A DNA stretch of 64,000 bases. Origin: an uncultured Gemmatimonadales bacterium (GTDB lineage: Bacteria > Gemmatimonadota > Gemmatimonadetes > Longimicrobiales > RSA9). Positions 27,824-61,441 of the stretch are shown piece by piece. The notes under the pieces were generated by a model. It was not told where the DNA came from. It saw only the letters and a program-made list of their open reading frames with translations, and ran no database searches. The position numbers and the translations under genes are program-made. Each line of letters starts with the position of its first letter. The first letter of the stretch is position 1. The stretch lies in assembly GCA_963783305.1 (NCBI GenBank), contig CAWAMW010000011.1, positions 96,001-160,000 of the forward strand. The letters run 5' to 3'.

Positions 27824-27841
27824 TACCCGTCTGGCCAGCAT

Positions 27842-27913
27842 GGCAGGGTAGCTCAATCGGTAGAGCAACGGAATCATAATCCGTGCGTTGGGGGTTCGAG
27901 TCCCCCCCTGCTA
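27842..27913 (+). tRNA. tRNA-Met(CAT), probably elongator
   Basis: GCTC/GAGC D-stem, ACGGA-ATCATAA-TCCGT anticodon arm, GGGGG-TTCGAGT-CCCCC T-arm; 3' C run one short of canonical; CCA not encoded. Confidence 0.88.
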
Positions 27914-27919
27914 CTGGAA

Positions 27920-44432: not shown

Positions 44433-45070
44433 TCGATCTGACACCTCTCGAGGTCCGTCAGAAAAAGGGAGACTTTCGCCGGGCTGTTCGCGGATACGAC
44501 GCGGAGCTGGTGAACGACTTTCTGGACCTGGTGGCCGACCGGATGGAGGAGCTCGTCAAGCAGAATATGGGGCTTCGGGACTCCGTGGAATCGATGGAGG
44601 GGGAGCTGGAGGAGTATCGCAAGAAGCAAGGGGCACTCTCGGACGCGCTCATGACGGCGCAGAAGCTCCGCGAGGACGCCCGGAGCCACGCGGAGAAAGA
44701 AGGCGAGCTTCTGGTGAGGGAAGCGCACCTGGCCGCCGAGACGGCGCGGCAGGATGGGGCGCGGGCGCTGCTCCGCGAGGAGGATGCGCTCCGACAGGTG
44801 CGGGCACGGCGGGCGCAGCTCGTACAGTCGTTCCGGCGGCTGTTGGAGCGGGAGCTCAGTGAGCTCGAGGCTGTCGAGGAGACGCTGGAGCTCGAAAGGC
44901 CGCAGCCGTCCCGGCGCCCCCGGGTGCCGGAGGGCGGGAAAGCTGCGGGGACGAAGACCGCCAGACCCCACTCTCCTCCGCCGGAGAAGCCGGCTGTGGA
45001 GGAGAGGCCAGCGCAGGCCGCGGATGAGGACGAGGAGGAGGACTGGTTGAAGTCGCTGGTGGAGGAATGA
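44429..45070 (+). CDS. DivIVA domain protein
   Basis: LTPLEV...F.RAVRGYD...V.DFLD then coiled coil. Confidence 0.9.
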   Translation: MIDLTPLEVRQKKGDFRRAVRGYDAELVNDFLDLVADRMEELVKQNMGLRDSVESMEGELEEYRKKQGALSDALMTAQKLREDARSHAEKEGELLVREAHLAAETARQDGARALLREEDALRQVRARRAQLVQSFRRLLERELSELEAVEETLELERPQPSRRPRVPEGGKAAGTKTARPHSPPPEKPAVEERPAQAADEDEEEDWLKSLVEE

Positions 45071-45098
45071 GCGGATCGAGTCGAGGACGAAGAGCGGA

Positions 45099-48000
45099 AT
45101 GAGATACCCGGAGTTCCCGGAAACCCACCGAGCGCTGGAGGAGGACGTTCTCCAGCGTTGGCGCGATGAAGAACTGTTCGCCCGCACGTTGGAAGCCACG
45201 GCGGAGGGGGAGCCGTTCGTCTTTTATGAGGGTCCGCCCACGGCGAACGGACGGCCGGGGATCCATCATGTCTTCGCGCGCACGCTGAAGGACCTCGTCT
45301 GCCGGTACCAGACCATGCAGGGCCGGCACGTGACGCGGAAGGCGGGGTGGGACACGCACGGCCTCCCTGTGGAGATCGAGGCGGAGAAGAAGCTCGGGAT
45401 CAGCGGCAAGCGGGAGATCGAGGAGCTGGGCGTCGCCCGCTTCAACGAGGTCTGCCGGGAGAGCGTTTTCACGTACAAGGAGGAGTGGGAGCGGCTGAGC
45501 GAGCGGATCGGGTACTGGCTCGACTACTCCGATCCCTACGTCACGTTCGAGCCCGAGTATATCGAGACGGTCTGGTGGCTGCTCAAGCAGCTGGACGACC
45601 GGAACCTCATCTATCGCGGCTACCGCAGCGTGCCGTACTGCCCACGGTGCGGCACGGCGCTCAGCTCGCACGAGGTAGCGCAGGGCTATCGCGAGGTGGA
45701 AGATCCCTCCGTGCATGTCCTCTGCCGCGTCCTCGGCCTCGACGGCGAGCCGACGGACCGCGCGCTCCTGGCCTGGACCACGACCCCGTGGACGATCCCG
45801 TCCAACTCGGCGCTGGCGGTGAACCCCGATCTCACGTACGCGGAAGTCGAGCACGATGGGCTGCGCGTGGTGGTCGCCGATGCCCTCGTGGAACGCGTGT
45901 TCGGAGAGGGGGCCGAGCCGGTCCGGCGCCTGCCTGCGTCCGAGCTCATCGGCCTGCGCTACCAGCGCCCGCTCGACCTGATCGATGTGGACGACGCCCA
46001 GCGGGAGGCCGGCTGGAAGGTGGTCCCCGCCGATTTCGTGAGCGATGAGGACGGCACCGGGGTCGTGCACATTGCACCGGCGTTCGGTTCCGACGACTAC
46101 GCGGCCGGGCAGACACACAGGCTTCCCATGCTGCGGCCCATCGACGATGCGGGGCGTTTCGAGGAGGGCATCCCGCGGGTGGGCGGGATGTTCGTGAAGG
46201 ACGCGGACCCGCTCCTGCTGGCCGCCATGGAAGAGGAGGGAGTCCTGTTCCGGAAGGGTCGGGTGAAGCACTCCTATCCGCACTGCTGGCGCTGCGACAG
46301 CCCGCTCATCTACATGGCCCGGGACTCCTGGTACATCCGGACCACCGCCGTGAAGGAGGCGATGCTCGCCAACAACCGGCGGGTGGGGTGGAACCCGCCG
46401 GAAATCGGCACCGGCCGGTTCGGCGAGTGGCTGGAGGGCAACATCGACTGGGCGCTCTCCCGTGACCGCTACTGGGGCACGCCCCTCCCGGTCTGGCTGT
46501 GTGACGCGAACGCGGAGCACCGCGAGGTGGTGGGATCGTTCGCGGAGCTGGCGGAGCGCGCCGGCGAGCTGCCTTCGGACTTCGACCCGCACAAGCCGTT
46601 CATCGATGAGCTGACGTGGCCGTGCCCCGCGTGTGAGGGCACCATGCACCGCACGCCGGAGGTGATCGACGCGTGGTTCGACTCGGGCGCCATGCCCTTC
46701 GCACAGTGGCACTACCCGTTCGGGGACCCCGACGCCTGGGAGCGCCACTACCCCGCGGACTTCATCGCCGAGGGGCTCGACCAGACGCGCGGCTGGTTCT
46801 ACAGCCTCATGGCCATCTCCACGATGCTGGATCCGGAGCCACAGGGGCCGGTCTATCGGAATGTCCTGGTGAACGGACTGGTTCTGGATCGCGACGGGCA
46901 GAAGATGTCGAAGTCGCGCGGCAACACGGTGAACCCATGGGACGCCATCGAGACGTTCGGTGCCGATGCCATCCGCTGGTACCTCGTGACCGTGAGTCAG
47001 CCGTGGGCGCCCAAGCGATGGGACGAGGAGGCGCTGGGCGAGACTGTTCGGCGCACGTTCGACACCCTGGCGAACACGTACCGGTTCTTCGCCATGTACG
47101 CCAACCTGGAGGAGTGGTCCCCGCCCGAGAGCCCGCATGGCGCCGACCGACCGACCGCTCATGGATCGGTGGCTCCTGTCCAGACAGGCGGAGCTGGTGG
47201 GCGAGGTGCGTCGCGCCCTGGACGGCTATGACCTCACGCGGGCCGCCCGGCTCATCGCGGATTTCGTGGTGGATGATCTGTCCAACTGGTACATCCGCAG
47301 GGGCCGCGACCGCTTCTGGGGATCGGCGGACGCCACCGATACGCGCTCCGCGTTCCAGTCGCTCTGGGAGGCGCTGGTGACCGTGAGCCGGCTCATGGCC
47401 CCGATCACGCCCTTTCTCTCCGACTGGATCCACCGGGCGCTGGGCCTCGAGTCGGTCCACCTCGCCGCGTACCCCGAGCGCCACCAGGGGCTGCGCGACG
47501 AGGCGCTGGACGCCGGGATGGAGGGTGTGCGCACCCTGGCCAGCCTGGGACGCGCCGCGCGCGAGCAGGTGCAGATCCGCGTCCGGCAGCCCCTCGCCAC
47601 CCTCTACGCCGTCACCCCGCGGAAGCTCGATCTTTCCCCGGAACTGCTGGCGGTGCTGAAGGACGAGCTGAACGTGAAGACCGTGGAGTTCCTGGACGTG
47701 GCCGAGGAGCTGGTCACCCTGGAGGCGAAGCCGAACTTCAGGCTTCTGGGTCAGAAATTCGGCAGCCACACGCAGGAGGCCGCGGCGGGCATCCGCGCGT
47801 TGAGCAGCGACGCCCTCTGGGCGTTCCAGTCCGGGGAGCAGATCGTGATCGAAGTGAACGGCGAGTCCCACGACCTCCAGCCGGACGACCTCGAGATCCA
47901 GAAGGTGGCCAGGGGAGAGCTGGTGGTGGAGACGGGGGACGGCTTCACGGTGGCCCTGGACCCCACCCTCGACCGAGACCTGCGACTCGAGGGACTGGGC

Positions 48001-48273
48001 CGGGAGCTGGTGAACCGAACGCAGCGGCTCCGTCGCGACGCCGGGCTCGAGGTGAGCGACCGGATCGAGCTCTGGATCAGCGGCGACGAGGACGCGGTCA
48101 CGGCCGCCCGGCTCCACGCCGACTACATCACGGGCGAGACGCTCGCCACGACCCTGGAGGTCGCGGCGCCGCCGGAATCCGACGCGATCCATACCCGCGA
48201 CGTGGAGCTGGACGACGTCGCGGCGTCCATCGCGCTGCGGCGATCCGGGGGTGGCGATGCCGCTGACGGCTGA
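45099..48273 (+). CDS. ileS: Isoleucine--tRNA ligase, type 2, split by a frameshift near 47130-47157
   Basis: EGPPTANG, GIHH, GWDTHGLP, WTTTPWT, GTGVVHIAP, KMSKS in 45099-47231; anticodon domain DRWLLS...LSNWYIRR in frame 47137-48273. Confidence 0.93.
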
Positions 48274-48628
48274 GCAGCGCGAGACGCTGGGCGCAATCCT
48301 CGACCGCGAGCGCCGTAAGCTCGTGCGTCGGCTTCGCCGTTTCGGTGAGGAAGTGGGCGAGCGGGAGGCGGCAGGATTCTCGCAGCACATGGCGGACGCC
48401 GCGGCGTCCATGACCGAGCGGGAGACCGCCGCGCTCATGGCGAGCGAGGAGGGGCGTCGTCTGGTGGAGGTGGACCGCGCCCTCGACCGGTTGACCCGGG
48501 CGCCGGAATCGTTCGGCGTCTGCCGGTCGTGTGAAGACGAGATCGTCTTCGAACGGCTGGAGGCTCTGCCATACACGGATCTGTGCATCGACTGCAAGCG
48601 CGGCGAGGAGAGGGGAGACGGCCGGTGA
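48257..48628 (+). CDS. TraR/DksA-family C4 zinc-finger protein
   Basis: HMADAA tip, FGVCRSC, RLEALPYTDLCIDC. Confidence 0.88.
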   Translation: MPLTAEQRETLGAILDRERRKLVRRLRRFGEEVGEREAAGFSQHMADAAASMTERETAALMASEEGRRLVEVDRALDRLTRAPESFGVCRSCEDEIVFERLEALPYTDLCIDCKRGEERGDGR

Positions 48629-49167
48629 ACGGAGGTGAAGCGGGGGCGGACCCCGTGCGCATCGGCAACTGGGGCCGCGGCAAGGTGGGACTCCTGGCCG
48701 GGGTCCTGACGGCCGTCGTGGCCTTCGACGTGGTCACAAAACTGATGATCCAGCGCACGTTCCGGCTGTATCAGCAGGTGGATCTGGTGGGCGACTATGT
48801 GCGCCTCACCTACATCTACAATCCCGGTGCGGCATTCGGGATCCATGTCGGTGACTACTCGCGCGCCATCTTCCTCGTACTCTCTGTCGTCGCCCTCGCC
48901 GCGCTCCTGGGAATGTACTGGGCGACGCCCGCCCGCGACCGCGTACGGCTGACCTCCATCGCGCTCATCTGCGCGGGTGCCATTGGCAACCTCATCGATC
49001 GGGTCCGCTCGGAGGCGGGAGTGGTGGATTTCCTGGACGTGGGCGTGGGCGACATGCGCTGGCCCGTGTTCAACGTGGCCGACATCGCGGTGACGACCGG
49101 GGCCATCTTCCTGGCCCTCTCGCTCTGGCGGGAGGACCAGCGGCCGCGACGGAAACGCAGTGGGTAG
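48625..49167 (+). CDS. lspA: Lipoprotein signal peptidase II
   Basis: NPGAAF, GNLIDR, VVDF, FNVAD. Confidence 0.95.
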   Translation: MNGGEAGADPVRIGNWGRGKVGLLAGVLTAVVAFDVVTKLMIQRTFRLYQQVDLVGDYVRLTYIYNPGAAFGIHVGDYSRAIFLVLSVVALAALLGMYWATPARDRVRLTSIALICAGAIGNLIDRVRSEAGVVDFLDVGVGDMRWPVFNVADIAVTTGAIFLALSLWREDQRPRRKRSG

Positions 49168-50125
49168 CGCGCGGCGGCTGGAGGTGGACGAGGCCGCTGT
49201 CGGCGAGCGCCTCGACGCCCACGTAGCGGAGCGGGTACCGGAGCTCTCGCGGAGTCGCGTCGTGCAGCTCATCGGGGACGGCCGGATCCGCCTGAACGGC
49301 GCCGAAGCCCGGAAGAGCGCGCGGCTGGAGCCGGGGGACGTCATCAATGTTGAGATCCCGGACCCGGAGCCGAGCGAGGTCGAGGCGGAGGACATTCCGC
49401 TGGAGATCGTATTCGAGGACCGGGACCTGCTGGTGGTGAACAAGCCGAGCGGCCTGGTGGTTCACCCGGCACCCGGTCATCGGAGCGGGACCATGGTGAA
49501 CGCGCTGCTGCACCACGTGGACGACCTGTCCGGCATCGGTGGCGTGAAGCGGCCCGGCATCGTGCACCGGTTGGACAAGGACACGTCCGGTCTGCTCATC
49601 GTGGCAAAGCACGACCGCGCCCACCGCAAGCTGTCCGCGGCGCTGAAGCGGCGCGACATCCACCGGATCTATCTCACCGTCTGCTGGGGCCACCTGGAGG
49701 AGGACCGGCTGAGCGTGGAGGCGCCGGTCGGCCGCTCGAACCGCAACCGGAAGCGGATGGCGGTCGTGGAGTCCGGACGCCGGGCGCTCACGCACTTCGA
49801 GCGGGTCCAGCGCTGGGTCGCCGCCGACCTGCTGCGCGCCCGCCTGGAGACGGGTCGCACGCACCAGATCCGCGTCCACCTCGCCCATATCGGCCACCCG
49901 GTCGTGGGCGACAAGCAGTACGCCGGCGGCGGCGCTCGCGGGATCAGCGGGACGGGACACCTCTGGGCGCGCGAGCTGGAGCGCCGGGTGCCAACCCACT
50001 TCCTCCACGCCCATCGCCTCGAGTTCGAGCACCCCAGGACGGGGCAGCCGATGGAGTTCGAAGCGCCGCTCCCTTCCACCCTGGCGGGGGCGGCCGAATG
50101 GGCGGCCGAGACGAGCGCGCGTTGA
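49160..50125 (+). CDS. rluD: RluA/RluD-family pseudouridine synthase
   Basis: S4 domain, HRLDKDTSG, TGRTHQIRVH. Confidence 0.92.
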   Translation: MGSARRLEVDEAAVGERLDAHVAERVPELSRSRVVQLIGDGRIRLNGAEARKSARLEPGDVINVEIPDPEPSEVEAEDIPLEIVFEDRDLLVVNKPSGLVVHPAPGHRSGTMVNALLHHVDDLSGIGGVKRPGIVHRLDKDTSGLLIVAKHDRAHRKLSAALKRRDIHRIYLTVCWGHLEEDRLSVEAPVGRSNRNRKRMAVVESGRRALTHFERVQRWVAADLLRARLETGRTHQIRVHLAHIGHPVVGDKQYAGGGARGISGTGHLWARELERRVPTHFLHAHRLEFEHPRTGQPMEFEAPLPSTLAGAAEWAAETSAR

Positions 50126-50151
50126 CCCGTTCCCGTCCGTCGGGATATCTT
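50122..50151 (+). promoter_or_regulatory. Putative sigma70 promoter of the TPR-Mgl operon
   Basis: TTGACC-18 bp-TATCTT. Confidence 0.55.
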
Positions 50152-50186
50152 CCATCCTCTCCCCCCGCACACGCACCCGACCGCCC

Positions 50187-52796
50187 ATGATCCAACGGCC
50201 CGAGGCCGTCACAGGCGCCGGACCCGAGGCCGGGGGCCGTCCCCGAGCGGCTCGTCGCTCGGCCATGTCCGAACGCGACGTGTCCATTCTCCGCTCGTTG
50301 GCCGACCGCATCGACCCCGGGGACGCTGGCGCCCACAACAACCTCGGAGTCCTCTTCTTTCAGAAGGGGCTCTTCGACGACGCGGTGGCCGCCTTCGAAC
50401 GGGCGCTCGAGCTCGATCCGCGACTGGAAGTGGCGCGCCAGAACGCCGAGATCGCGTTCAAGGAGAGCGGCCATTTCGAAGAGCGCGTGCGCTCGCTTCG
50501 CGAGGCTCTCCGCGCCGACCCCGCCAGCGCCGACAGCCGCGACGCCCTCGCCCGCACCTACCTGATGGGCGGCGACCCCGCGAGTGCGGCGGCCGAGTGG
50601 ACGGCGCTGCTCCGGCAGTACCCCCAGAGTACTCCGCTCCACATGAAGCTGGCGTACGCGGAAGCCGAACGCGGCCGCGTGCAGGTGGCGGTCCACCTGC
50701 TGGAGGAGGCCGCGCGCCTCTCCCCGGAGTTGGCCGCCGTCCGGCTCCAGCTCGCCGAGCTGATGCTGGACACCGGAATGCCCGTCCGGGCCGAGCGCGA
50801 GGTGCGGCGCGCCGTCGCACTGGATCCGATGGCGTCGCGGGCGCAGCAGTTCCTCGCTCGCCTGCTGGAGGAGACCGGCCGGACGGAGGAGGCCACGGAG
50901 GCGCTGGAGCGGGCGAAGGAGCTGGACCCGGCGGCGGGCAGCTCGACCGGGCATCTGTCCCTCGACCGGTACCGCTCCGCGGCGCGGGCAAAACGCAGGC
51001 GCGAGGGTCGGCCCGAGCCGGTGACAGAGGCGGGGCTCGGCGGTCTGGCACGCGCGACGGAGCTCCGCCGGAACGGCAACCTGCGGGGCGCCGCGGAGGA
51101 GCTGGAACGGGAGCTGACGGCCGGCGACGCGTCGCTGGAGGTCCGGCAGGCGAGCGCCGAGATCCACCTTCTCATGGGCGACCTCGAGGCGGCGGCCGAC
51201 GCCTACGGTGCTCTGGTGGCGGAACGGGAGGACAGCCCCAAGCTCTGGAATGAGCGCGGGGTCGCCGTTCACCGTCTCGCCCGGTTCGATGAGGCCGTGC
51301 ACGCGTACCGCCGCACCGTTGCCCTCGACCACGCCTACTCCCTCGGCTGGAACAACCTGGGGGTGGCGCTGGCTCAGAGGGGGGAAGAGGGAGCGGCCGA
51401 GCGAGCGCTCCGACAGGCGACCGCGGGGACGGCGCCGCCCGAGATTCTGTGGAATCTGGGGTTGTTCCTCACCCGCTTGGAGCGTCCTGATGAGGCGGTG
51501 GAGACCTATCGGGAGGCGCTTGAGATCGACCGCTCCTCCGCCGAGTCGTGGGCACGCCTCGGGAGCGCTCTCTTCCAGGCACGAGAGCCGGCGGGCGCAC
51601 GGGACGCGCTGCTCCAGGCGCTGGAGCGCGATCCGGATCTGGCGGACGCCCGCTATCAGTTGGGCTTCGCCCTCTCCGCCCTCGGAGACTTCCGCGGCGC
51701 GTTGAGGGAGACACAGCGCGCGCTGGAGCAGGCGCCCGTCATCCCTACCCCACAGTACCAGCTGCTCATCGACGCCCAGTTCGAGGACGGCACGCTCCCA
51801 GCGCCCGAGACTACCGAGGGGGAGCGGGTTCCATCCGGATCCCCCGTGGCCGGGTTCGATTTCGAACCGAAGTCTCTCGACAATGCCTTCGCCGGGTTCA
51901 GGCCCCGGGACCCCTCGCCGGGCACCGCGGAGATCCAGACGTTCGTCGACGAGGGCCGGACCGCGCTCCGCCGTGGCCAGCTCAGGAAGGCCGCGGCGGC
52001 GGCAAGCCGCGCGGTGCGGGCGGCGCCAGAGGCGCTGGATCCGCGGCTGATCGAGGGGGAGGTGCTCCTCCGACAGGGGCTGGCGGGCGAGGCGCTCGAG
52101 CGATTCGAGGGCGTGCTCAGGGGCGAGGCCGATACCCGGCAGGTGCGGGAGGCGCTCACCGGCCGCGCCCGTGCGCTCCTCGACCTGGGTCGAGCCAAGG
52201 ACGCGATTGCGGCCGCGCGTGCGGTGGAGGACGCCGGGGGCGGGGGATCGTTCACGGCGCGGGCGCTCCTCGCCGCCGAGCGGTGGACGGACGCAGTGTC
52301 GGCGTTCGAGCGGGCGGTCCAGAACGGCGAAGTGGACGCTACCACCCTGGCAGGGTACGGCAGTGCGCTGCTCGGCGCAGGCCGACCGGCGGACGCGCGA
52401 AAAGTGTTTACCCGATCGCTGGCCACCAGCCCCTCCGTAGCCGCGCGGGTGGGTCTGGGGCAAGCTCTCGAGGCCCTGGGCGACCGCCCTGGCGCCATGA
52501 GGGCGTACCGGGAAGGAGTCACCGCGCTGCCGAGTTACGGCCCGGCCGTCCTGAGGCTCGCCATGGCGGAGTGGCGATCGGGGAAGGCCCAGGACGCCGT
52601 CCGATCACTGGTCCAGTTCCTCGACCTCGACCCGACGCACGTGGCCGCGCTGGTCCAGCTGGGCACCTGGCTCGGAGAGCTCGGACGGGTCGAGCAGGCG
52701 CTGCGGTCGCTCCATCGAGCGTTGAGCCTCGATGCGGGGAACGCAGAGGCGCGCCGGGAGCTCGAGCGCTTGAGCGCCGCCGGAAGGGGGGGCTGA
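50187..52796 (+). CDS. Large multi-TPR protein
   Basis: Many TPR units (AHNNLGV, LWNERGV, GWNNLGV, ARYQLG); start 50187 or 50265. Confidence 0.9.
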   Translation: MIQRPEAVTGAGPEAGGRPRAARRSAMSERDVSILRSLADRIDPGDAGAHNNLGVLFFQKGLFDDAVAAFERALELDPRLEVARQNAEIAFKESGHFEERVRSLREALRADPASADSRDALARTYLMGGDPASAAAEWTALLRQYPQSTPLHMKLAYAEAERGRVQVAVHLLEEAARLSPELAAVRLQLAELMLDTGMPVRAEREVRRAVALDPMASRAQQFLARLLEETGRTEEATEALERAKELDPAAGSSTGHLSLDRYRSAARAKRRREGRPEPVTEAGLGGLARATELRRNGNLRGAAEELERELTAGDASLEVRQASAEIHLLMGDLEAAADAYGALVAEREDSPKLWNERGVAVHRLARFDEAVHAYRRTVALDHAYSLGWNNLGVALAQRGEEGAAERALRQATAGTAPPEILWNLGLFLTRLERPDEAVETYREALEIDRSSAESWARLGSALFQAREPAGARDALLQALERDPDLADARYQLGFALSALGDFRGALRETQRALEQAPVIPTPQYQLLIDAQFEDGTLPAPETTEGERVPSGSPVAGFDFEPKSLDNAFAGFRPRDPSPGTAEIQTFVDEGRTALRRGQLRKAAAAASRAVRAAPEALDPRLIEGEVLLRQGLAGEALERFEGVLRGEADTRQVREALTGRARALLDLGRAKDAIAAARAVEDAGGGGSFTARALLAAERWTDAVSAFERAVQNGEVDATTLAGYGSALLGAGRPADARKVFTRSLATSPSVAARVGLGQALEALGDRPGAMRAYREGVTALPSYGPAVLRLAMAEWRSGKAQDAVRSLVQFLDLDPTHVAALVQLGTWLGELGRVEQALRSLHRALSLDAGNAEARRELERLSAAGRGG

Positions 52797-53915
52797 GTGC
52801 CCATCGAGGGACCGCTGAAGGAGCTCGGGATCCAGGACGTGCTCCAGATGCTCGACCTGGCGCAGAAGACCGGCATCCTGACCGTGCGCTCGCAGCGCAT
52901 GATGGATGAGGCGGTGGTCCATATGCTGGACGGTGAGCTCGTCTTCGCAAGCCGTCGTCGGTCCATGCGCCTTCTCGGTCAGCAGCTGCTCCGGGACGGG
53001 AAGCTGACGGAGAAGGAGCTCGAGCGGGCGCTCGAAATGCAGCGTCGCGACTCGAAGCAGCGGCTGGGAGCCATCCTCGTGGAGATGGGGAGCGTGGATC
53101 GGAGCGAGCTCGACCGGCAGCTCCGGTTCCAGATCGAGGAGACGATCTACGACCTGCTGGCGTGGGATGAGGGCTATTTCCATTTCGAGGAGACCGACGA
53201 GACGCCACCGGGACCCGTGCGGGTCCGGGTGGATTCGCTCCTGATGGAAGGCGCTCGCCGGATCGACGAGTGGACGCGGCTGGAATCGCGGGTCCCCAGC
53301 TCCGACGCCGTGCCCGTACTCTTCGCGAAGGAAGGGGACAGCGGGCTCATCGACCTCCGCCCGGAGCAGTGGGAGGTGCTGGCGGAGATCGACGGAGAAC
53401 GGGACCTCCGCCTGATCGCCAGCGAGCTGGGGCGGAGCGCGTTCGACGTGGCCAAGATCGTGTACGGGCTCGTGACCATGAACGTGGTCAGCGTCAGCGA
53501 GCGCCCGCTGAAGATCAAGGACGAGGCCCTGATCCCGATCCTCGACGAGCTGGAGCTCATGCTGGCCGATGGCGAGCTGGAGGCGGCCGAGCGGCGCGCA
53601 AGGGAGATCCAGAAGGAGTACCCCGATCGCGTCGAGCTGCCGCTCCTGACGGGCCGCGCCCTCGCCGCTCAGGGCCGGCTGAGGGCCGCCGCCGAATCCT
53701 TCGATCGGGCGGTGACCCTCGACCCGCTGTCCCCGGACGCCCATTATCAACTGGGACTCGCCGCAGCCAGAGCGGGCGAGATCGACCGCGCCATGGAGGC
53801 ATGGTCCACTTTTCTACGGCTGAACCTGGGCGGCGACCGACGCACGTTCGTCGAGGCCGCCTTCGATGCGATGACCGATCTGAAACACGCCCTCGACGCC
53901 GCGCCCACGGAATGA
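52797..53915 (+). CDS. DUF4388 protein with MshEN-like motifs and C-terminal TPR
   Basis: G.L.E....DVLQ.L...KTG.L N-terminus; LLMEGARRIDEW; TPR tail. Confidence 0.82.
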   Translation: MPIEGPLKELGIQDVLQMLDLAQKTGILTVRSQRMMDEAVVHMLDGELVFASRRRSMRLLGQQLLRDGKLTEKELERALEMQRRDSKQRLGAILVEMGSVDRSELDRQLRFQIEETIYDLLAWDEGYFHFEETDETPPGPVRVRVDSLLMEGARRIDEWTRLESRVPSSDAVPVLFAKEGDSGLIDLRPEQWEVLAEIDGERDLRLIASELGRSAFDVAKIVYGLVTMNVVSVSERPLKIKDEALIPILDELELMLADGELEAAERRAREIQKEYPDRVELPLLTGRALAAQGRLRAAAESFDRAVTLDPLSPDAHYQLGLAAARAGEIDRAMEAWSTFLRLNLGGDRRTFVEAAFDAMTDLKHALDAAPTE

Positions 53916-54778
53916 CTGAACGCGATCTGCAGCGCTGGAGCAGGGAGGTGGCCGAGGACCCCGGCGCCCCCTCGTTCGTCCGCCTGGCCCGCGCGTGTCG
54001 CCGGCAGGGCCGGCACCAGGCCGCACGCGACATCGTGCACGGCGGCCTCACCCGGCATCCCGAGCACGTGGACGCACACGCGCTCCTCGCCCTCATCCAT
54101 ATCGATGGCGGCCAGCGTCAGCAGGCACGCGACGAGTGGGAGACCGTTCTCCGCCTCGATCCCGGGAACTTCGATGCCAGCCGCGGACTCGGGTTCCTGG
54201 CTCTCGAGCGCAACGATCTGATCGCCGCCCGCCGTCACCTGGATGCCGCCGCCGCCGCGCGCCCCGATGACCCGGCGGTCTCTCAGGCGCGGCAGGTGCT
54301 CGATCGGCGGGAGGACGCCGCCGCTCCCTCCGACCTCCCGGGCGCGCGCGTCCACACCGGCGCCCGTGACCCCGCGCGCACCGGAGCCCGTGACCCCGCG
54401 CGCACCGGAGCCCGTGACCCCGCGCGGCTCTTTACCGCCCTCGCCGCGGAGGCCCCCTTCAAGGGCGCCCTCGTGCTCGACGACCAGGGAATGGTCCTGG
54501 CCGGAGGACTGGACAGCGATGCCCTGTCCGATGACCTCCTCGGCGCGCTCCTCACTACCACGGTCGCGGAGGCCAGCCGAACGACCGGAATGCTTCAACT
54601 CGGCGATTGGAACGAAATGCTGATCGAGACGGATTCGGCCACACTCCACCTTACCGCCCTCCCCGGCGCCGCGGTCCTGGTGGTCGTGGCGGAGCCGGAC
54701 ACGCCCGCCGGATGGGTGGTTCGGGCCGCCGGCAGGGCGGCGGAGATGGCCCGGCGCTTCATGGAGGTGGGGACATGA
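53912..54778 (+). CDS. TPR + Roadblock/LC7 fusion protein
   Basis: N-terminal TPRs; C-terminal GALVLDDQGMVLA...LQLGDW..MLIET Roadblock fold. Confidence 0.8.
   Translation: MTERDLQRWSREVAEDPGAPSFVRLARACRRQGRHQAARDIVHGGLTRHPEHVDAHALLALIHIDGGQRQQARDEWETVLRLDPGNFDASRGLGFLALERNDLIAARRHLDAAAAARPDDPAVSQARQVLDRREDAAAPSDLPGARVHTGARDPARTGARDPARTGARDPARLFTALAAEAPFKGALVLDDQGMVLAGGLDSDALSDDLLGALLTTTVAEASRTTGMLQLGDWNEMLIETDSATLHLTALPGAAVLVVVAEPDTPAGWVVRAAGRAAEMARRFMEVGT
54355..54426 (+). repeat. 3 x 24-bp in-frame tandem repeat (TGARDPAR)
   Basis: CACCGG(C/A)GCCCGTGACCCCGCGCG three times, one mismatch. Confidence 0.95.
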
Positions 54779-55125
54779 ATGGAGCCGTAGAGCGGGCGCT
54801 GAGTACGCTGACCCGGATCGATGGGGTGCGGGGTGCCATGGTAGTGGACAGAGAGGGAGGGGTGCCCGTCCTGGCGAAGCTGACCACCGGGGTGCCCGAG
54901 ACGGCGCTGGCGGCCATGTCGGGGCTGCTCTTCGGCCGGACCACGGAGGCTTCACAGTCGGCGGGATTCGGCCGACTGGGTGTGCTCCAGCTTCAGGCGG
55001 ACGGGGGGCATATGGTCCTGGCGGGGGCGGGACCGCTCCTGGTCGTGGTTTTGACGGAGGCCGACGCGCGACTGGGTCTGGTGCGGGTCCAGGCGGCGCG
55101 GGCCGCGGGCGAGCTGAGCGAATGA
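54775..55125 (+). CDS. Roadblock/LC7 protein (MglB/MglC-like)
   Basis: GVRGAMVVDREGGV, LAAM, ARLGLVR; 116 aa. Confidence 0.85.
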   Translation: MNGAVERALSTLTRIDGVRGAMVVDREGGVPVLAKLTTGVPETALAAMSGLLFGRTTEASQSAGFGRLGVLQLQADGGHMVLAGAGPLLVVVLTEADARLGLVRVQAARAAGELSE

Positions 55126-55607
55126 GACGCGAAGATGTGAAGCGCGTGGCCGAAGCACTTGCCGAGCCGATGAAGACGTTCGTGCGGGACTCCCGTGTCC
55201 GAACGGCCGTGCTCGTCAACCGGAGTGGGCAGGTGCTGGCGCACCACGGGTTTGGTCAGAGCTACGACATCGGGAACGTGGCCACACTGGCGGCGGCTGC
55301 GCACTCCTCCGCGCACGCGCTGGCACAGCTCACCGGCGCTGGCCGCTGGATGCACCTCCATCACGCCGGCAAGGAGAACCAGCTCTTCCTGGCGCCCTTC
55401 GTCGCCGGCTCCGAGGAGCTGGTGCTGGTGGCCATCTTCGACAACGATTCCACGCTGGGCCTCGTCCAGCTCTTCTTCGACCGCCTCGCCGAGGCCATCC
55501 AGCAAATACCCGAGCTCGGGGGCGCCCTCGTGCCGGGCGATGTCGAGGCGTTCGAGAGTGATCTCGAGGCGGGGCTCGACCGACTGCTGCCCGAGAGCGG
55601 CGACTGA
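55122..55607 (+). CDS. mglB: MglB-like Roadblock GTPase regulator
   Basis: AVLVNRSGQVLA, ATLAAA, LHHAG, VAIFDNDSTLGLV; directly upstream of mglA. Confidence 0.8.
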   Translation: MRREDVKRVAEALAEPMKTFVRDSRVRTAVLVNRSGQVLAHHGFGQSYDIGNVATLAAAAHSSAHALAQLTGAGRWMHLHHAGKENQLFLAPFVAGSEELVLVAIFDNDSTLGLVQLFFDRLAEAIQQIPELGGALVPGDVEAFESDLEAGLDRLLPESGD

Positions 55608-56209
55608 TGCCCGTGGTCCAGTACTCTTCTCGGGAGATCCTGTGCAAGATCGTGTACTACGGTCCGGCCAGGAGCGGCAAGACCACCAACCTGCAGTGGG
55701 TCCACCGTTCACTCCCCGATGGGCGGAGCAGTGAAATGGTCTCCCTGGCCACCGAGAACGATCGCACCCTCTTCTTCGACTTCCTGCCCCTCGACCTGGG
55801 CGAGATCTCGGGCTTCCGCACACGGCTCCAACTCTACACCGTCCCCGGCCAGGTCTACTACAACGCTACACGTCGGCTGGTACTGAGGGGCGCCGATGGC
55901 GTCGTCTTCGTGGCGGACTCGGAGCCACGGCGCCGGCGAGACAACATGGAGAGCCTGCGCAACCTCCAGGAGAACCTGCTGGAGAACGACTTCGACATCC
56001 GGGAGCTTCCGCTGGTCCTCCAGTACAACAAGCAGGACCTGGAGGGGGCCCGGCCGAAGTCCGAGATGGACGACGAGCTGAACTTTCGCGACGTCCCGTC
56101 GCACGGGGCGTCCGCCGTCCAGGGTGTGGGGGTCATTCCCACGCTGCGCTCGGTGAGCGAGATGGTGCTCCACAGCGTATCACGGCGCTTCGCCTCGCCC
56201 ACGGCCTGA
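55607..56209 (+). CDS. mglA: MglA-family small GTPase
   Basis: KIVYYGP..SGKTTNL, DRTLFFDF, YTVPGQ, GADGVVFVADS, NKQD. Confidence 0.93.
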   Translation: MPVVQYSSREILCKIVYYGPARSGKTTNLQWVHRSLPDGRSSEMVSLATENDRTLFFDFLPLDLGEISGFRTRLQLYTVPGQVYYNATRRLVLRGADGVVFVADSEPRRRRDNMESLRNLQENLLENDFDIRELPLVLQYNKQDLEGARPKSEMDDELNFRDVPSHGASAVQGVGVIPTLRSVSEMVLHSVSRRFASPTA

Positions 56210-56216
56210 CCGCAGC

Positions 56217-58040
56217 ATGCCCCTAGACCTGGATCCGCGCTTCACCTTCGACTCCTTCGTGGTCGGCCCCGCCAACCGTCTGGCGGTGGCCGCCGCCCGC
56301 CGCGTCTCGGACGCACCCGGCACCACGTACAACCCGCTCTTCATCTACAGCGGGTCGGGGCTCGGGAAGACCCATCTCCTCGGCGCCATCGGTCACCAGA
56401 TCGAGAGGGTCCATGGGATGAAGGTGGTCTCTGACACGATGGAGCACCTCATGGAGGCCATCAGCGCAGCCGTCGAAGCCGGAGAGCGCGACGCCTTCCG
56501 GGGGGCGCTCCGGGAGGCGGGGCTCCTGCTCCTCGACGATGTACAGTTCCTGGCCGGTCAGCGGCAGATCCAGGAAGAGCTGCTCCGCATCTGGGATGCG
56601 CTGGCAGCCCGCGGCACACAGGTGGTTCTCACCAGCGATCGCCAACCGCAGGAGATCGACGGAATCGATGACCGCCTCCTGAGCCGGCTCTCCGGCGGCC
56701 TCATTGTCGACATCAGCGCCCCCGACTACGAGACGCGGGTCGCCATCGCCCGGCGAAAGGCCGAAGAGCGCGGGAGCATCCTGGCCCAGGGAGTGTTTCA
56801 GTCGCTGGCGCGGATCGCGTTCACGAACGTGCGGGAGCTCCAGGGTGCGCTGAACCGCATCATCGCCGTGCAGGAGCTCGAGGGCAGGGAAGTCACGCCC
56901 GACGACGTGCCGGAGCTCCTGGGATCCGCCGCCGACCGCGGACGGGACGAGTTCGGCGAGTTCCTCTCCGACATCACCGGCTCGGTGGACGACGTGGTGC
57001 AGCGGGCCGACCGCTACATCGCGGACGCCATCCTGGCGTGGGAAGGAGAATCCTACCGCACCCGGCGACTCGACAGCGCTCTCACCGGCCATGTCACCGG
57101 GGCGGAGGCGCAGGAGGTGGTGCGGCGGTTCGAGCAGGACATCGTTCGGCTCCGGGAGATCGAGAACGAGATACGGCAGCTGGACCCGGCAGCCCGGGAG
57201 CTCGAGAGTTCCGTGTTGCGGGACCCCGACCGCGTGGCCGAAGCCGAATCGCTCCTCAGCACCGTCCGTGAGCGCCAGTCACCGCCCCCCGCTCCCCCCG
57301 AGGGTCTCGCCCTGGGCGAGCTGGATGGCGCGGAGACGCTCGCAGTTCGCGCGGCCCTGTCGGTCGCCGACCAGCCGGGCAGCGCGTTCAACCCGCTGTA
57401 CGTGCTCGGGCCGGCCGGCTCCGGGCGCTCGACCCTGCTGATCGCCCTGGCCAATGCCCTCGTGGGACGGGGGTTGACGGTGGCGTACATGGACGGCGCC
57501 ACGTTTGCCGAGGAGCTGATTGACGCGCTGGAACGGAGCCGCCTCGAGGCATGGCGCGCCCGGCTCAGGGGAGCCGACGTGCTGGTCCTCGACGACCTGC
57601 ACGAGCTGGCCGGCCTGGAGCGCGGGTACGAAGAGCTCTTTCACCTCATCGACGGGCTCCACCGGGAGGGCCGCCAGCTGGTGTTCTCCGCCAACGTGCC
57701 GCCGCAGGCGCTGCCGTTCCCATCACGTTTGCAGAGCCGCCTCGAGGCCGGGCTCGTCGTGGAGCTCCAGCCGCCGACCCAACGGCAGGCGCCGACCCCG
57801 GACGCGGTGTACGCCGGATCCCCGGAACCCGCGGTGGGGGCGGTGGACGGCATGGGGGCGGCTGAGCCGGGTTCCCAGAAGGCCGCGGACCGGCCGGACG
57901 CGACGGCAACGAGCGAGACCGCGCCTGCCGGCGAACAGGGCCGCTCGGCAAGACACGCCGCGCACTGGATTCTCAGCCGCGAAAAGGTCCTGTGGGAATG
58001 GCCCTACTCACAGGACTGGATCGAGGAGGACCCGGACTGA
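56217..58040 (+). CDS. Protein with two DnaA/Hda-type AAA+ modules, lacking DnaA domains I and IV
   Basis: FTFDSFVVG..N, YNPLFIY.GSGLGKTHLL, DDVQF, RLLSR, NVREL.GAL; second FNPLYVLGPAGSGRS, DDLHEL, RLQSR. Confidence 0.85.
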   Translation: MPLDLDPRFTFDSFVVGPANRLAVAAARRVSDAPGTTYNPLFIYSGSGLGKTHLLGAIGHQIERVHGMKVVSDTMEHLMEAISAAVEAGERDAFRGALREAGLLLLDDVQFLAGQRQIQEELLRIWDALAARGTQVVLTSDRQPQEIDGIDDRLLSRLSGGLIVDISAPDYETRVAIARRKAEERGSILAQGVFQSLARIAFTNVRELQGALNRIIAVQELEGREVTPDDVPELLGSAADRGRDEFGEFLSDITGSVDDVVQRADRYIADAILAWEGESYRTRRLDSALTGHVTGAEAQEVVRRFEQDIVRLREIENEIRQLDPAARELESSVLRDPDRVAEAESLLSTVRERQSPPPAPPEGLALGELDGAETLAVRAALSVADQPGSAFNPLYVLGPAGSGRSTLLIALANALVGRGLTVAYMDGATFAEELIDALERSRLEAWRARLRGADVLVLDDLHELAGLERGYEELFHLIDGLHREGRQLVFSANVPPQALPFPSRLQSRLEAGLVVELQPPTQRQAPTPDAVYAGSPEPAVGAVDGMGAAEPGSQKAADRPDATATSETAPAGEQGRSARHAAHWILSREKVLWEWPYSQDWIEEDPD

Positions 58041-59659
58041 TGGCGATCAAGGGCAGTCTCCGCGAGGCGGGGCTGGCGGACGTGTGCCAGCTCCTCTCCA
58101 TGGGCCAGAAGACGGGGCGGCTATCGGTCACCGACGGCTCTCGCTTCGGACAGATCTATTTCGACCGCGGCCGCATCAATTTCGCCACCATCGTGAACCG
58201 GCGCGACCGACTCGGCGACCTCCTGGTGCGCGACGGGGCCGTGCGGCACGACCAGCTCATGGAAGCGGTGGACGCGCAGGCGGAGCGGCCCGACCGGCGC
58301 CTGGGCGAGATCCTGCTCGAGCGCGGCCTCATCGACAGCGCCACCCTCACGGCCTCGATCGAGCGGCAGATCGAGGAGGCCATCTACTACCTGTTCACCT
58401 GGAAGCAGGGCAGCTTCTACTTCGAGCCGGGGAAGGCGCCGGAGAGCGGTGAGATCCTGATCCGCGTGAATCCGGAGAACCTGCTGCTCGAGGGCGCTCG
58501 CCGAGTCGATGAGTGGGGCGTGATCGAGAAGAAGGTCCCCTCCATGAACCTCATCTTCGGCCTGGACCGTGAGCGCATGGAGGATGCGGACGTGCAGTTG
58601 ACGCCGAGTCAGCGCGCCCTCGTGCCGCTGATCGATGGCGACCGTACGGTGGAGGACCTGGCAGAGGAATCTGGGCTCGGGGAGTTCGCCACGGGAAAGG
58701 CCCTCTACGGGCTGATCCAGGCCGGCTTCGCGTTCCGCGTGGGCCGCCGGGCCGGCGCGGAGCCGGTGGAGGCCGGGGATGTGGACGAGGCTCGAAACCT
58801 GGGCGCCGCGTTCTACGAGACGGCGATGCTCGATGACGCCGAGCGCGAGTTCCGCCGGGCGCTGCGGAGTCGCCCGCACGACGTCACCGCCCGGCACTTC
58901 ATGGCGCTCATCGCGCTGCGGAAAGGTGAGGCCGCCGAGGCGATCCGGCGCCTCTCCGCCCTCCTCGAGGACGCCGGACCACGGACCGGCGTGTTCCTGA
59001 ACCTGGCCTTCGCACTCCGACTCGAGCGTCGGTACTCCGATGCACTCCGCGTCCTCGACGCGGCTCAGAAGTCCGCGCCGAACGATCCGCGGGTCCGGCT
59101 CGCGCGGGGCGCGACCCTGCTCTTCGCGGGCGAGATCGCCGCCGCCGCCGAAGCGCTCGACGAGTACCGCACCATGCTCCACCCCGACACGCTCCCGCCC
59201 GCGCCCTACTACTACTGCGTCGGGCTCGCCGCCACCGTGGCCGGCCGCATGGAGGACGCCGACGCTCTCCTCGATGAGGCGCTCGGGGCCCATCCCGCAT
59301 CGCCGCCGCTCCACCTCCTGGCCGGGAACCTGGCGGAGAGGCGGGCCGATATGGCGGCGGCCGAGCGCTCCTACCAGCAGGCCGCCGAAGAGGACCCGGC
59401 GCTCGCACAGGCGCATCGAAATCTCGGCGACCTGGCAAGCCGGCGGGGCGTGGACCGAGAGGCCCTCGAGCACTATCGCCGGGCCGCCGAAGTGGACGCC
59501 TCGCTGGGGGACGAGCTCTACATGCGGCTCGCCGACCTGCACTACCGCCACAACGCCCGGGAGGAGGCGATCCGCTGCTGGAGGCGTGCCCTGGAGCTGA
59601 ACCCCGGGAACCAGGTGGCTCGGAACCACCTCGAGCTGGTGGCCCGTGCCGCCCGCTGA
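58040..59659 (+). CDS. DUF4388 protein with tandem MshEN-like motif and TPR array
   Basis: Paralogous N-terminus to 52797-53915; LLLEGARRVDEW; several TPRs. Confidence 0.82.
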   Translation: MAIKGSLREAGLADVCQLLSMGQKTGRLSVTDGSRFGQIYFDRGRINFATIVNRRDRLGDLLVRDGAVRHDQLMEAVDAQAERPDRRLGEILLERGLIDSATLTASIERQIEEAIYYLFTWKQGSFYFEPGKAPESGEILIRVNPENLLLEGARRVDEWGVIEKKVPSMNLIFGLDRERMEDADVQLTPSQRALVPLIDGDRTVEDLAEESGLGEFATGKALYGLIQAGFAFRVGRRAGAEPVEAGDVDEARNLGAAFYETAMLDDAEREFRRALRSRPHDVTARHFMALIALRKGEAAEAIRRLSALLEDAGPRTGVFLNLAFALRLERRYSDALRVLDAAQKSAPNDPRVRLARGATLLFAGEIAAAAEALDEYRTMLHPDTLPPAPYYYCVGLAATVAGRMEDADALLDEALGAHPASPPLHLLAGNLAERRADMAAAERSYQQAAEEDPALAQAHRNLGDLASRRGVDREALEHYRRAAEVDASLGDELYMRLADLHYRHNAREEAIRCWRRALELNPGNQVARNHLELVARAAR

Positions 59660-60074
59660 CAAGAGCGGCTCGGGCCGGCCCAGGGAGGGCCCGCAGAACG
59701 AACGGGCCCGCGCCCTCGTGTGGAGGAGCGGAGATGCCCTCCTGGCCGTTCCTCTGGCCGCGGTGCTGGAGATCGCCGCCCCCGACGCCGACGGGCGCGT
59801 TCGGAGCCGCGTCGGGTCCCTCCCTGTCAGCACGGTCCCCGGATTGCCGCCGGCCGCGAACCCACCCCGCGCGGTCGTGATACGGGCGGGAGGCGCCACC
59901 GTGGCTCTCGCCGCGGATGATGTGGAAGGGGTTCGCGAGTACACCGCGCGCGAGAGTGCCCGCACACCGCCCTGGCTCCGGCTGCTCAACATTGACCATC
60001 TCGCGGGTCTGGTGAGGCTCGACGAGGGTCGTGTCGCCGCCCTGCTCGCCGTCGAAACCCTGCACCCGTCGTGA
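59646..60074 (+). CDS. Short CheW-like protein
   Basis: LLAVPLAAVLEI, VALAADDVEGV, GLVRLDEGRVAALL CheW-type strands. Confidence 0.6.
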   Translation: MPPADKSGSGRPREGPQNERARALVWRSGDALLAVPLAAVLEIAAPDADGRVRSRVGSLPVSTVPGLPPAANPPRAVVIRAGGATVALAADDVEGVREYTARESARTPPWLRLLNIDHLAGLVRLDEGRVAALLAVETLHPS

Positions 60075-61102
60075 ATCCGCCGCGACGCGGTCGTTGCGCC
60101 AACCGGCGGCTCGTTCCCGCCGCGCTGCTGCTCACCGCCTTCTGTGCCCTCGCGACCTCCTTCGCCCCTGTGTCCGCCCAGGATGCGGTCCGGGCCGGAG
60201 AAGTGACGCTCCACTTCTGGCCACAGCAGCGGGCGCTCGCGACGCAGATCGTTACGCGGATGGCGGAGCAGCTTCCGCTCCCCGCACTGCCCGATTCGGT
60301 CCTCGTCGGCGGCACCGTCGACGTGTACCTGGCCTATGATGCAGCGCGGTGGGACAGCCTTACCGGCGGTGCGGCACCGGAGTGGGGCGCGGGTGTCGCC
60401 GACCCGGCCGCGGGTCTCATCGTCCTCCCGACCTTCGACTGGGAGCGCACCCCGCCGCACACGATCTACCGCACGCTCCGGCACGAGCTCGCCCACGTGG
60501 CGCTCCAGCGCTACCTCGGCGAGGCCAGAATCCCGCGGTGGTTCAGCGAGGGGTACGCGCAGTGGGCGGCGGGGGAGTGGCGCTGGGAATCCGCATGGCA
60601 GCTGCGGATGGCCTTCGTCCGCAGCGACTCGCCGCCCCTCGACTCCCTGACCCTCCACTGGCCCGTCGCGGAGACCGACGCTCGCCTGGCGTACCTGCTG
60701 TCTGCCAGCGCCGTGGCCTACCTGGTGGAGCGAAGCGGTGAGCGGGGCATTCGCATCCTGCTGGAGCAGTGGCGGGAGGATGTCGACTTCGATGCCGCCT
60801 TCCGCTCCGTCTACGGCCTCACGATCGGCCAGTTCGAGGAAGACTGGCGGGCGTACGTGAAGCGCACCTACGGCTGGACCGTCGTCCTCGGCCACTCCCT
60901 CTTCTTCTGGGTGATCGCCGCCGTCCTTCTGCTGGTCCTCTTCTTCATTCGACGACGACGCGACCGCGCCCGACTCGACACGCTCAGGGCCACCGAGCCC
61001 CCGGACGATCCCGCCTACTGGGAGATCGACTTCGACCCGCCGCTTCCGCCCCGCCCCGGCGAACCCGCGCCGCCGGGTCCGCACGTTGACCCGGGCGGAT
61101 GA
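60071..61102 (+). CDS. Membrane-anchored HExxH metallopeptidase (peptidase MA-like)
   Basis: Signal peptide, RHELAH, PRWFSEGYA, C-terminal TM followed by RRRR. Confidence 0.8.
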   Translation: MNPPRRGRCANRRLVPAALLLTAFCALATSFAPVSAQDAVRAGEVTLHFWPQQRALATQIVTRMAEQLPLPALPDSVLVGGTVDVYLAYDAARWDSLTGGAAPEWGAGVADPAAGLIVLPTFDWERTPPHTIYRTLRHELAHVALQRYLGEARIPRWFSEGYAQWAAGEWRWESAWQLRMAFVRSDSPPLDSLTLHWPVAETDARLAYLLSASAVAYLVERSGERGIRILLEQWREDVDFDAAFRSVYGLTIGQFEEDWRAYVKRTYGWTVVLGHSLFFWVIAAVLLLVLFFIRRRRDRARLDTLRATEPPDDPAYWEIDFDPPLPPRPGEPAPPGPHVDPGG

Positions 61103-61335: not shown

Positions 61336-61410
61336 GGGCGCGTAGCTCAGCTGGTCCAGAGCGCCTGCTTTACACGCAGGATGTCGGGGGTTCGAATCCC
61401 TCCGCGCCCA
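61336..61410 (+). tRNA. tRNA-Val(TAC)
   Basis: GGGCGCG/CGCGCCC acceptor, CCTGC-TTTACAC-GCAGG anticodon arm, TTCGAAT T-loop. Confidence 0.96.
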
Positions 61411-61441
61411 CTTCTCCCTCCACCCTGACACTCAGGCGACC

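Follow-up and report, generated by a model that had tools for sequence, protein, structure and literature searches.

The replication initiator DnaA is known to assemble head to tail in an ATP-dependent manner through its AAA+ core (PMC5742627), and Hda of E. coli is a protein of the same AAA+ clade that lacks domains I and IV, retains an arginine finger and carries a clamp-binding motif (PMC5397184). A second group of described systems uses small GTPase, roadblock, TPR and PATAN proteins that act on the pilus motor; these include MglA/MglB-SgmX-SopA of Myxococcus, with its MglA-SgmX-PilB pathway (PMC11580455), and the PATAN regulators of cyanobacteria (10.1101/2021.06.11.447907). In Synechocystis such PATAN domains bind to PilB1 and PilC. 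Neither a DnaA-type ATPase nor a bipartite peptide adaptor is described in the available portions of these papers. Group 1 MglA has been recorded in Gemmatimonadetes with occasional PATAN neighbours by Wuichet and Sogaard-Andersen (PMC4316618), and the available supplement gives G. aurantiaca GAU_1115 only as 'MglB>MglA>'. Here we report on a gene at 56217..58040 (+) of a 64,000-nucleotide stretch (the window; contig CAWAMW010000011.1, positions 96,001 to 160,000) from an uncultured Gemmatimonadales bacterium, which encodes a 607-residue protein hereafter called the adaptor. It is a real, conserved and apparently undescribed reuse of the DnaA ATPase, and its most likely role is that of a peptide adaptor in which the ATP switch is optional. 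A literature search confined to papers available without subscription found no description of this protein.

The gene begins 7 bp past the stop codon of an mglA-like gene, and its own stop codon overlaps the start of a gene for a 539-residue protein with DUF4388 and TPR domains (DUF4388-TPR). A preliminary description, made from the nucleotides alone, had given the reading frame, the 7-bp gap and the named motifs at positions that all proved accurate. Pfam returned two Bac_DnaA stretches (E 6.9e-84) and, at E<=0.01, no match to DnaA_N or Bac_DnaA_C, as had been expected; domain III begins at residue 5, so that domain I is absent, and no domain IV was found. With the two stretches summed, the protein scored 384.9 bits against TIGR00362, above the DnaA cut-off of 343.9 bits, and mislabelling as dnaA is therefore a real risk, which that description had foreseen; many homologs do carry the labels 'chromosomal replication initiator protein' or 'DnaA/Hda family protein'. 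TIGR03420, the Hda model, gave 155 bits against a cut-off of 194.8. By membership the protein is neither DnaA nor Hda. The true, complete dnaA of the genome lies elsewhere, as anticipated, at G000:C2:891096-892478 (-), and is the only other strong match in the genome; contig C2 also holds the single Bac_DnaA_C match of the whole genome. This dnaA is followed by a gene that is dnaN-like in its type of sequence, with DnaA-box-like sites between the two. The adaptor locus was rightly said to lack a dnaN or oriC context, and no DnaA box was found within the 64-kb window. Residues 225-607 matched 295 homologs (8000 candidates scored), those with organism names belonging to Longimicrobiales, Gemmatimonadaceae and other Gemmatimonadota, which would place the window in this phylum. 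The guanine-plus-cytosine (GC) content at the codon positions of the gene is that of its neighbors. An assembly artefact or a recent duplication was considered and rejected: full-length homologs occur across the class, the GC content fits, and the clades formed by the two ATPase modules each span both orders.

Between the two modules, which are described below, lie motif A (56943..57002 (+), residues about 243-262), an amphipathic helix of the form EFxxFLxD that is kept in the mini-proteins introduced later, and one copy of a helical repeat of about 95 residues (57003..57278 (+)), which forms tandem arrays in Thermoplasmata-type proteins, some of them with DnaA domain III. The helical domain between the modules was predicted with a local confidence (pLDDT) >90 over most of its length. 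Its best fold comparison reached Z 6.6 (helical bundles of EzrA, Embp and EbhA), within the range of common arrangements, and the Atlas yielded no usable match to the fold. Module 2 is followed by a low-complexity spacer (57777..57959 (+), about residues 521-581; pLDDT <50 at 525-583), which in the alignment takes the position of the lid subdomain of most Gemmatimonadales-type homologs, and by the C-terminal tail, motif B (57960..58037 (+), residues 582-607; EKxxWxWP...EE). Low complexity is confined to this spacer, and the region between the modules, which contains motif A and a folded domain, is not a mere linker. Across the window's genome, the motif A profile matched the adaptor gene only, and the motif B profile scored 34 bits on the adaptor and at most 13 bits in five other places.

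According to a structural prediction, the Trp tail occupies the TPR groove of the DUF4388-TPR protein encoded downstream. A model of the complex was built from the full DUF4388-TPR protein and adaptor residues 240-607 (368 residues, module 1 lying outside), and its complex score was 0.79, compared with 0.01 for the best of three controls. Among solved pairs, 116 of 157 came up to the mark applied to this score, and among mismatched pairs 2 of 215 did; these counts are only rough because our own alignments were used. TPR-peptide complexes are common among solved structures, and the pass may therefore partly reflect likeness to them. Model runs agreed in at least 61% of contacts, the pLDDT of the partner was at least 69, and confident contacts were confined to adaptor residues 582-607 and TPR residues 259-493. 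Residues N321, Q457 and N461 of the partner, and R460, for which the consensus has Lys, sit in columns that are 85-91% conserved.

The evolution of the gene points to two short motifs, A and B. The ATPase content was tallied in 64 of the best 80 DUF4388-TPR loci retrieved from GTDB, namely those with at least 2.3 kb upstream (the 16 loci with short flanks were dropped). Motif A, the repeat and motif B were present in all 64, and the ATPase part varied: 45 loci had two modules with lids, 15 had a second module without a lid, and 4 had a single module. Fifteen genomes had DUF4388 without the repeat, and ten of these were examined. One of them had both modules without the repeat and one a single degenerate module with the tail, and the other eight, from four genera, had at the adaptor position an open reading frame of 60-73 residues with motifs A and B only (L274:10927-11148, L275:15130-15345, L276:10824-11042, L277:6744-6926, L280:9778-9987, L281:9903-10085, L282:6694-6912 and L283:2094-2312). 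Seven of the eight abut the start of the DUF4388-TPR gene and five begin at the mglA stop codon. Profiles built from full-length proteins only found motif A in 7/8 and motif B in 7/8 of them, compared with 0/1660 shuffled sequences, and AAA profiles gave noise only in the mini-proteins (best 5.7 bits; shuffles 3.9). An alignment of the mini-proteins retrieved 1071 proteins of 33-128 residues (2657 candidates), some of which may be fragments of long forms; among the top 120, 119 are 70-76 residues long, and both motifs occur in 114/120 as opposed to 0/1200 shuffles. Where organisms are named among these 120 they are Gemmatimonadaceae, the proteins are annotated as 'hypothetical protein', and the family is without a Pfam entry. 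Eight genomes of Gemmatimonadaceae type thus keep only the two motifs, and the ATPases are therefore dispensable there; from the whole reduction series it follows that the lasting core is two short motifs beside a DUF4388-TPR gene. As a separate observation, the DUF4388-TPR partner in the mini-protein genomes lacks about residues 56-110, the region of the MshEN-like motif, in 7/8 cases and has a shortened end in 8/8.

We consider it fairly probable that the protein is a docking adaptor in a polarity and chemosensory module, joined to an ATP-controlled assembly switch and probably acting on type IV pili. The C-terminal tail would bind the TPR groove of the DUF4388(PATAN)-MshEN-TPR protein, a step that is modelled and backed by the evolution of the gene. 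Motif A may act as a second docking helix that bridges two partners or two copies. By analogy with DnaA biochemistry, module 1 would bind and hydrolyze ATP and assemble head to tail through arginine fingers, which could lead to nucleotide-dependent clustering of the docked PATAN protein; in the window's protein, module 2, being without a lid, probably contributes no more than a face with an arginine finger. The PATAN protein would then relay the Che/MglAB signal to the type IV pilus motor, as its analogs suggest. Since several lineages have dropped the ATPase, this part of the protein would tune the system and not form its core. The proposal in the preliminary description that an initiator fold had been co-opted as a signalling or scaffold ATPase gains support from the surrounding operon, from the predicted binding of the tail to the TPR groove and from the mini forms that have no ATPase.

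Several observations weigh against parts of this proposal. Motif A made no confident contact in the complex model, and the interface columns of the TPR region are not significantly more conserved than the other TPR columns (0.62 versus 0.59, p 0.23). In the window's own partner, residues 426-427 are Leu-Leu and thereby depart from the Asn-Asn of the consensus. The codons for the acidic end of the tail coincide with the ribosome-binding site of the next gene, and this overlap may account for some of the conservation of that end; the relative orientation of the modules is not fixed by the predicted structure (predicted template-modelling score, pTM, 0.49). With regard to the pilus, PilT matches were tallied by scoring six candidates per genome. 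In family f2 all 12 module-positive genomes have 2-4 PilT-family matches and all 37 negative genomes have 0-1, a pattern that is weak because kin are not independent (30/37 of the negative genomes come from two genera) and PilT is nearly universal (292/301 genomes), which leaves it without discrimination. Families f10-f12 mostly have two PilT matches without the module. The pilus output is accordingly put forward as an analogy, given the near-universal PilT, the f10-f12 families and the narrow f2 sampling. Elsewhere in the window's genome there are other che clusters, two pilT genes and one flhA; the flhA and the other che clusters make another output possible.

The distribution of the gene was surveyed with a profile of the inter-module region, which matched 202 of the 301 genomes sampled from the phylum, nearly all of them with a single copy (196/301 when a single sequence replaced the profile; the 301 genomes include the unpublished genome G153, which enters no other result). 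By family, the counts were 121/125 in f4, 56/71 in f5, 12/49 in f2 and 0/41 in five other families together, and in f2 the repeat and DUF4388 co-occur in the same 12/49 genomes. At 41 loci (40 fetched loci and the window) a DUF4388-TPR gene is found downstream in every case, one of them frameshifted, compared with mglA upstream in 36/41; the emphasis that had been laid on mglA was therefore misplaced, the constant partner being the downstream gene. The reciprocal survey of the best 80 DUF4388-TPR loci agreed. An adaptor gene was present at all 67 of them with at least 1.6 kb upstream, mglA lay upstream at 58 of the 59 with enough flank, cheR or cheD lay downstream at 64/71, and motif B was found at 79/79 DUF4388-TPR loci. 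These data bear on a different explanation, that the protein is a direct effector or regulator of MglA, acting through motif A or module 1, with TPR docking being secondary. The frequent position directly after mglA is what it would predict, as is the start of five of the eight mini genes at the mglA stop codon, and a separate mglA paralog is kept in the five f2 genomes tested (four shown without an operon copy) and in the window's genome. Against it, the adaptor is kept without an adjacent mglA in 5/41 loci and in L277, L279, L281 and L283, and in the loci examined it is always beside DUF4388-TPR. The adaptor also has no TPR or roadblock domain, whereas an SgmX-type effector has a TPR array; TPRs occur in four of its neighbors. 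We regard this explanation, which is partly compatible with the docking adaptor, as unlikely.

In the first ATPase module (56229..56921 (+), residues 5-235) the whole of DnaA domain III is present, lid included. It matched domain III of B. subtilis (8bv3) with E 2e-54, and Foldseek superposed the two at a root-mean-square deviation (rmsd) of 1.6 A over 233 columns. The fold and nucleotide-site residues are shared with DnaA structures 8bv3/8btg, 2z4r of T. maritima and 1l8q/2hcb/3r8f of A. aeolicus. Walker A K51, Walker B D107/D108, sensor I D141, box VII R153, the arginine finger R157 and sensor II R206 are all intact. Among 116 homologs of at least 500 residues (out of 120 listed), K51, D107, D108, D141 and R206 show no variation, and R153 and R157 are conserved in 115 and 113, respectively. 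The positions of E. coli DnaA V211, K243 and R245, which serve single-stranded DNA binding or the interface (PMC5742627), are S, Q and Q in module 1; in module 2 they are I, R and L and thus partly kept. In contrast to DnaA, the adaptor lacks domains I and IV, has altered single-stranded DNA positions in module 1, and possesses a duplicated core, the repeat, a predicted docking tail and a signalling operon.

Module 2 (57330..57770 (+), about residues 372-518) consists of the base subdomain only. Its Walker A motif ends in GRS (57408-57431), its sensor I residue is Asn, and it stops after box VII, without lid, sensor II or NVREL; both box VII arginines, R504 and R508, are kept in 116/116 homologs. 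The preliminary description was correct on the signatures of module 1 and on GPAGSGRS, and overstated the extent to which module 2 repeats them. The Walker A position is Lys in 71, Arg in 40 and another residue in 5 of the 116 homologs; the Lys-to-Arg change is lineage-specific. A change of this kind does not by itself establish that the site is dead, since E. coli Hda also carries Arg-Ser at these positions and binds ADP (PMC5397184); the missing lid is the more telling sign. A degenerate second P-loop was rejected as a hallmark of the family, and the earlier stress on it was misplaced, since a majority of homologs keep Lys and a full module 2, lid included, is present at the 45 loci counted above. 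From those 45 loci and from the invariant arginine fingers one could argue for a genuine AAA+ machine, a tandem motor or remodeller that would use ATP to drive the assembly or disassembly of a polar signalling complex. The four loci with one module, the 15 with a lidless second module and the mini forms with none speak against such a motor. Both modules match Bac_DnaA best, and Foldseek matches to p97/Rix7-type double ATPases were poor (template-modelling score, TM, 0.25-0.31; rmsd about 20 A or more), the domain orientation of the model being uncertain. A tandem motor is in our judgment distinctly improbable.

The suggestion of an Hda-like link, in which the arginine fingers act on the cell's own DnaA and tie polarity signalling to replication initiation, did not find support. 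The adaptor does resemble Hda (5x06, 3bos) in its DnaA-clade AAA+ fold, in having no domain I or IV, in the retained arginine finger and in the Arg-Ser of module 2, and the trees are compatible with an origin shared with the phylum's own DnaA, a grouping that was not rejected in the approximately unbiased (AU) test (p-AU 0.42). It differs from Hda in having two modules, a dispensable ATPase and no clamp-binding motif: the pattern that finds the motif of E. coli Hda found none in the adaptor, and a loose pattern hit 4/120 homologs at internal sites. Its match to DnaA (E 2e-54) is also far stronger than its match to Hda (E 1e-6 to 3e-4). The gene survives the total loss of both AAA+ modules, and 99/301 genomes are without a match to the repeat profile, whereas dnaA was found in 41/41 genomes checked. 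Similar cores without domain IV occur in proteins labelled Thermoplasmata, which are archaea that initiate replication with Orc1/Cdc6. Taken together, these data make an Hda-like role very unlikely. That the gene is a decaying, functionless dnaA duplicate carried along in the operon is hardly credible: module 2 and in some lineages module 1 do decay, and reading frames are split at 5/41 loci, but those frames lie in low-contig assemblies and may be sequencing indels, the gene is single-copy in most of the 202 genomes, its catalytic residues are invariant, and its two motifs outlast everything else.

Relatives of the protein were found beyond the phylum. The repeat profile also matched large proteins with up to 25 matching stretches, and profile-profile comparison of the repeat gave a probability of 96 (E 5e-9). 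Bac_DnaA follows the repeats in 5/27 scanned repeat proteins, several of which have zinc ribbons. A 90% cluster-mate of one repeat-DnaA protein is labelled Thermoplasmata archaeon, as is one repeat-DUF835 protein; another repeat protein is labelled Wallbacteria, and most are without an organism name. In addition, DnaA cores without domain IV are fused to DUF835, to a T2SSE ATPase (Thermoplasmata-labelled) and, with two cores per chain, to MshEN. The domain IV profile matched 0/78 of the non-dnaA candidates. In a search of the Atlas an archaeal Bac_DnaA+DUF835 cluster came top, followed by clusters from Gemmatimonadota; all scored below 0.9 and are hence leads only. Of two metagenome scans for Thermoplasmata-type loci, the first was empty and the second gave 80 canonical dnaA loci. 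These uncharacterized fusions (repeat-DnaA-zinc ribbon, DUF835-DnaA, DnaA-T2SSE ATPase and MshEN-double-DnaA) share with the adaptor an intact domain III, signalling or pilus-type partners and, in one group, the same repeat, and differ from it in having other domain orders, up to 10 repeats and no motif B. DUF835 has been described as an inactive KaiC output domain, with no mention of DnaA in the available text (PMC5847659). A DnaA-like/DUF4388 fusion, P0301, was set aside as a single record that lacks the tail end and the DUF4388 start and may be chimeric.

Trees were built from 107 and then 56 of 238 domains; they are unrooted and sample canonical DnaAs with bias. Modules 1 and 2 formed sister clades (96/91) away from the DnaA of the phylum, and each clade spans both orders, which dates the duplication to before these orders separated. 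A branch supported at 91/86 has 25 canonical DnaAs on one side together with two rows that lack domain IV. The trees lean towards a separate lineage without domain IV to which the adaptor modules would belong, with these two exceptions, and the proteins of Gemmatimonadota may share an origin with the other such fusions. We offer, as a tentative idea that we would sooner doubt than adopt, that DnaA domain III is a general ATP-controlled clustering switch in signalling, drawn from one old lineage without domain IV in Gemmatimonadota and Thermoplasmata, and that in Gemmatimonadota it polymerizes in the manner of DnaA on oriC, though free of DNA, and thereby clusters the PATAN-TPR effector at the pole. 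If true, this lineage is one often joined to the repeat of about 95 residues and to PATAN, MshEN, DUF835 or pilus-ATPase domains. Three groups of records were noted alongside. P0121-P0134, P0227 and P0246 carry arrays of up to 25 copies of the repeat of about 95 residues, which has no Pfam match; the arrays are joined to DUF835, to zinc ribbons or to a DnaA domain III, and the labels, where present, are Thermoplasmata or Wallbacteria. P0303, labelled Thermoplasmata archaeon, combines DnaA domain III with a type II/IV secretion ATPase. P0287-P0293 and P0295 (1870-2000 residues) contain MshEN, a DnaA domain III, a long helical region and a second DnaA domain III, and the tree places them as an independent tandem DnaA-core architecture.

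The reuse of a replication-initiator ATPase in signalling would be of interest in a phylum that is widespread and barely studied, about two thirds of whose sampled genomes carry the operon. The stepwise reduction from two ATPases to one and a half, one and none, ending in a 60-residue peptide, amounts to a natural deletion series; the ATPase-less forms of 60-73 residues indicate which parts are essential and allow the contribution of the ATPase to be tested directly, and the predicted contact between the tail peptide and the TPR groove is a concrete, testable interaction. The frequent labelling of the adaptor as dnaA can mislead origin prediction and marker-gene phylogenies.

In relatives the gene usually stands in the order cheW-cheY-cheA-cheC, large TPR, DUF4388-TPR, TPR-roadblock, roadblock, mglB, mglA, adaptor, DUF4388-TPR, cheR-cheD-cheB-cheW-TPR and peptidase MA, and the upstream che block was found in 9/10 extended loci. 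In contrast to the Myxococcus and cyanobacterial systems, the Gemmatimonadota genes lie within a che cluster that includes cheC and cheD. The window's locus begins with a large TPR protein of 869 residues (50187..52796 (+)), in front of which the cheW-cheY-cheA-cheC genes of relatives are absent. It continues with a first DUF4388-MshEN-TPR protein identified by profile matches (52797..53915 (+)), a TPR-roadblock protein (53912..54778 (+)) and a second roadblock protein (54775..55125 (+)), both from the Pfam scan, an mglB-like roadblock protein (55122..55607 (+); Robl_LC7, with NF052242 below its cut-off) and the mglA-like small GTPase (55607..56209 (+); Arf and small_GTP matches), which is presumed to be mglA from its position after mglB and from its protein family. 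After the adaptor come the predicted partner, a DUF4388(PATAN) protein with a cyclic di-GMP (c-di-GMP)-type MshEN motif and TPRs (58040..59659 (+), 539 residues), a degenerate CheW-like remnant (59646..60074 (+)) where relatives have cheR-cheD-cheB-cheW-TPR, and a Peptidase MA-family gene (60071..61102 (+)), which closes the conserved cluster and occurs in 38/41 loci. Both DUF4388 proteins scored above the cut-off of the model for the MshE-type c-di-GMP motif. Except for the CheW remnant, the che genes have been lost from this locus (50125-50187 and 59646-60074).

Some further observations were made on the surroundings. The che cluster of relatives (L072-L081 with L032-L071) includes CheC, CheD and several CheW, and no chemoreceptor gene was recognized among the conserved open reading frames scanned in these loci. 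The second mglA paralog of the window's genome (G000:C16:616093-616671; 57% identical) is preceded by putative dnaX- and recR-like genes; f2 genomes without the operon copy also keep such a paralog. A yggS-divIVA-ileS-dksA/traR-lspA-rluD block at 43731-50125, in which the names yggS, ileS and lspA are our presumption, precedes the signalling operon in most relatives and includes a DivIVA-family gene in a diderm. Within it, the ileS-like gene (45099-48273) is read in two overlapping frames near 47137-47231, probably owing to an assembly indel. Transfer RNA (tRNA) genes were located at 27841-27914 (tRNA-Met(cat)) and 61336-61411 (tRNA-Val(tac)).

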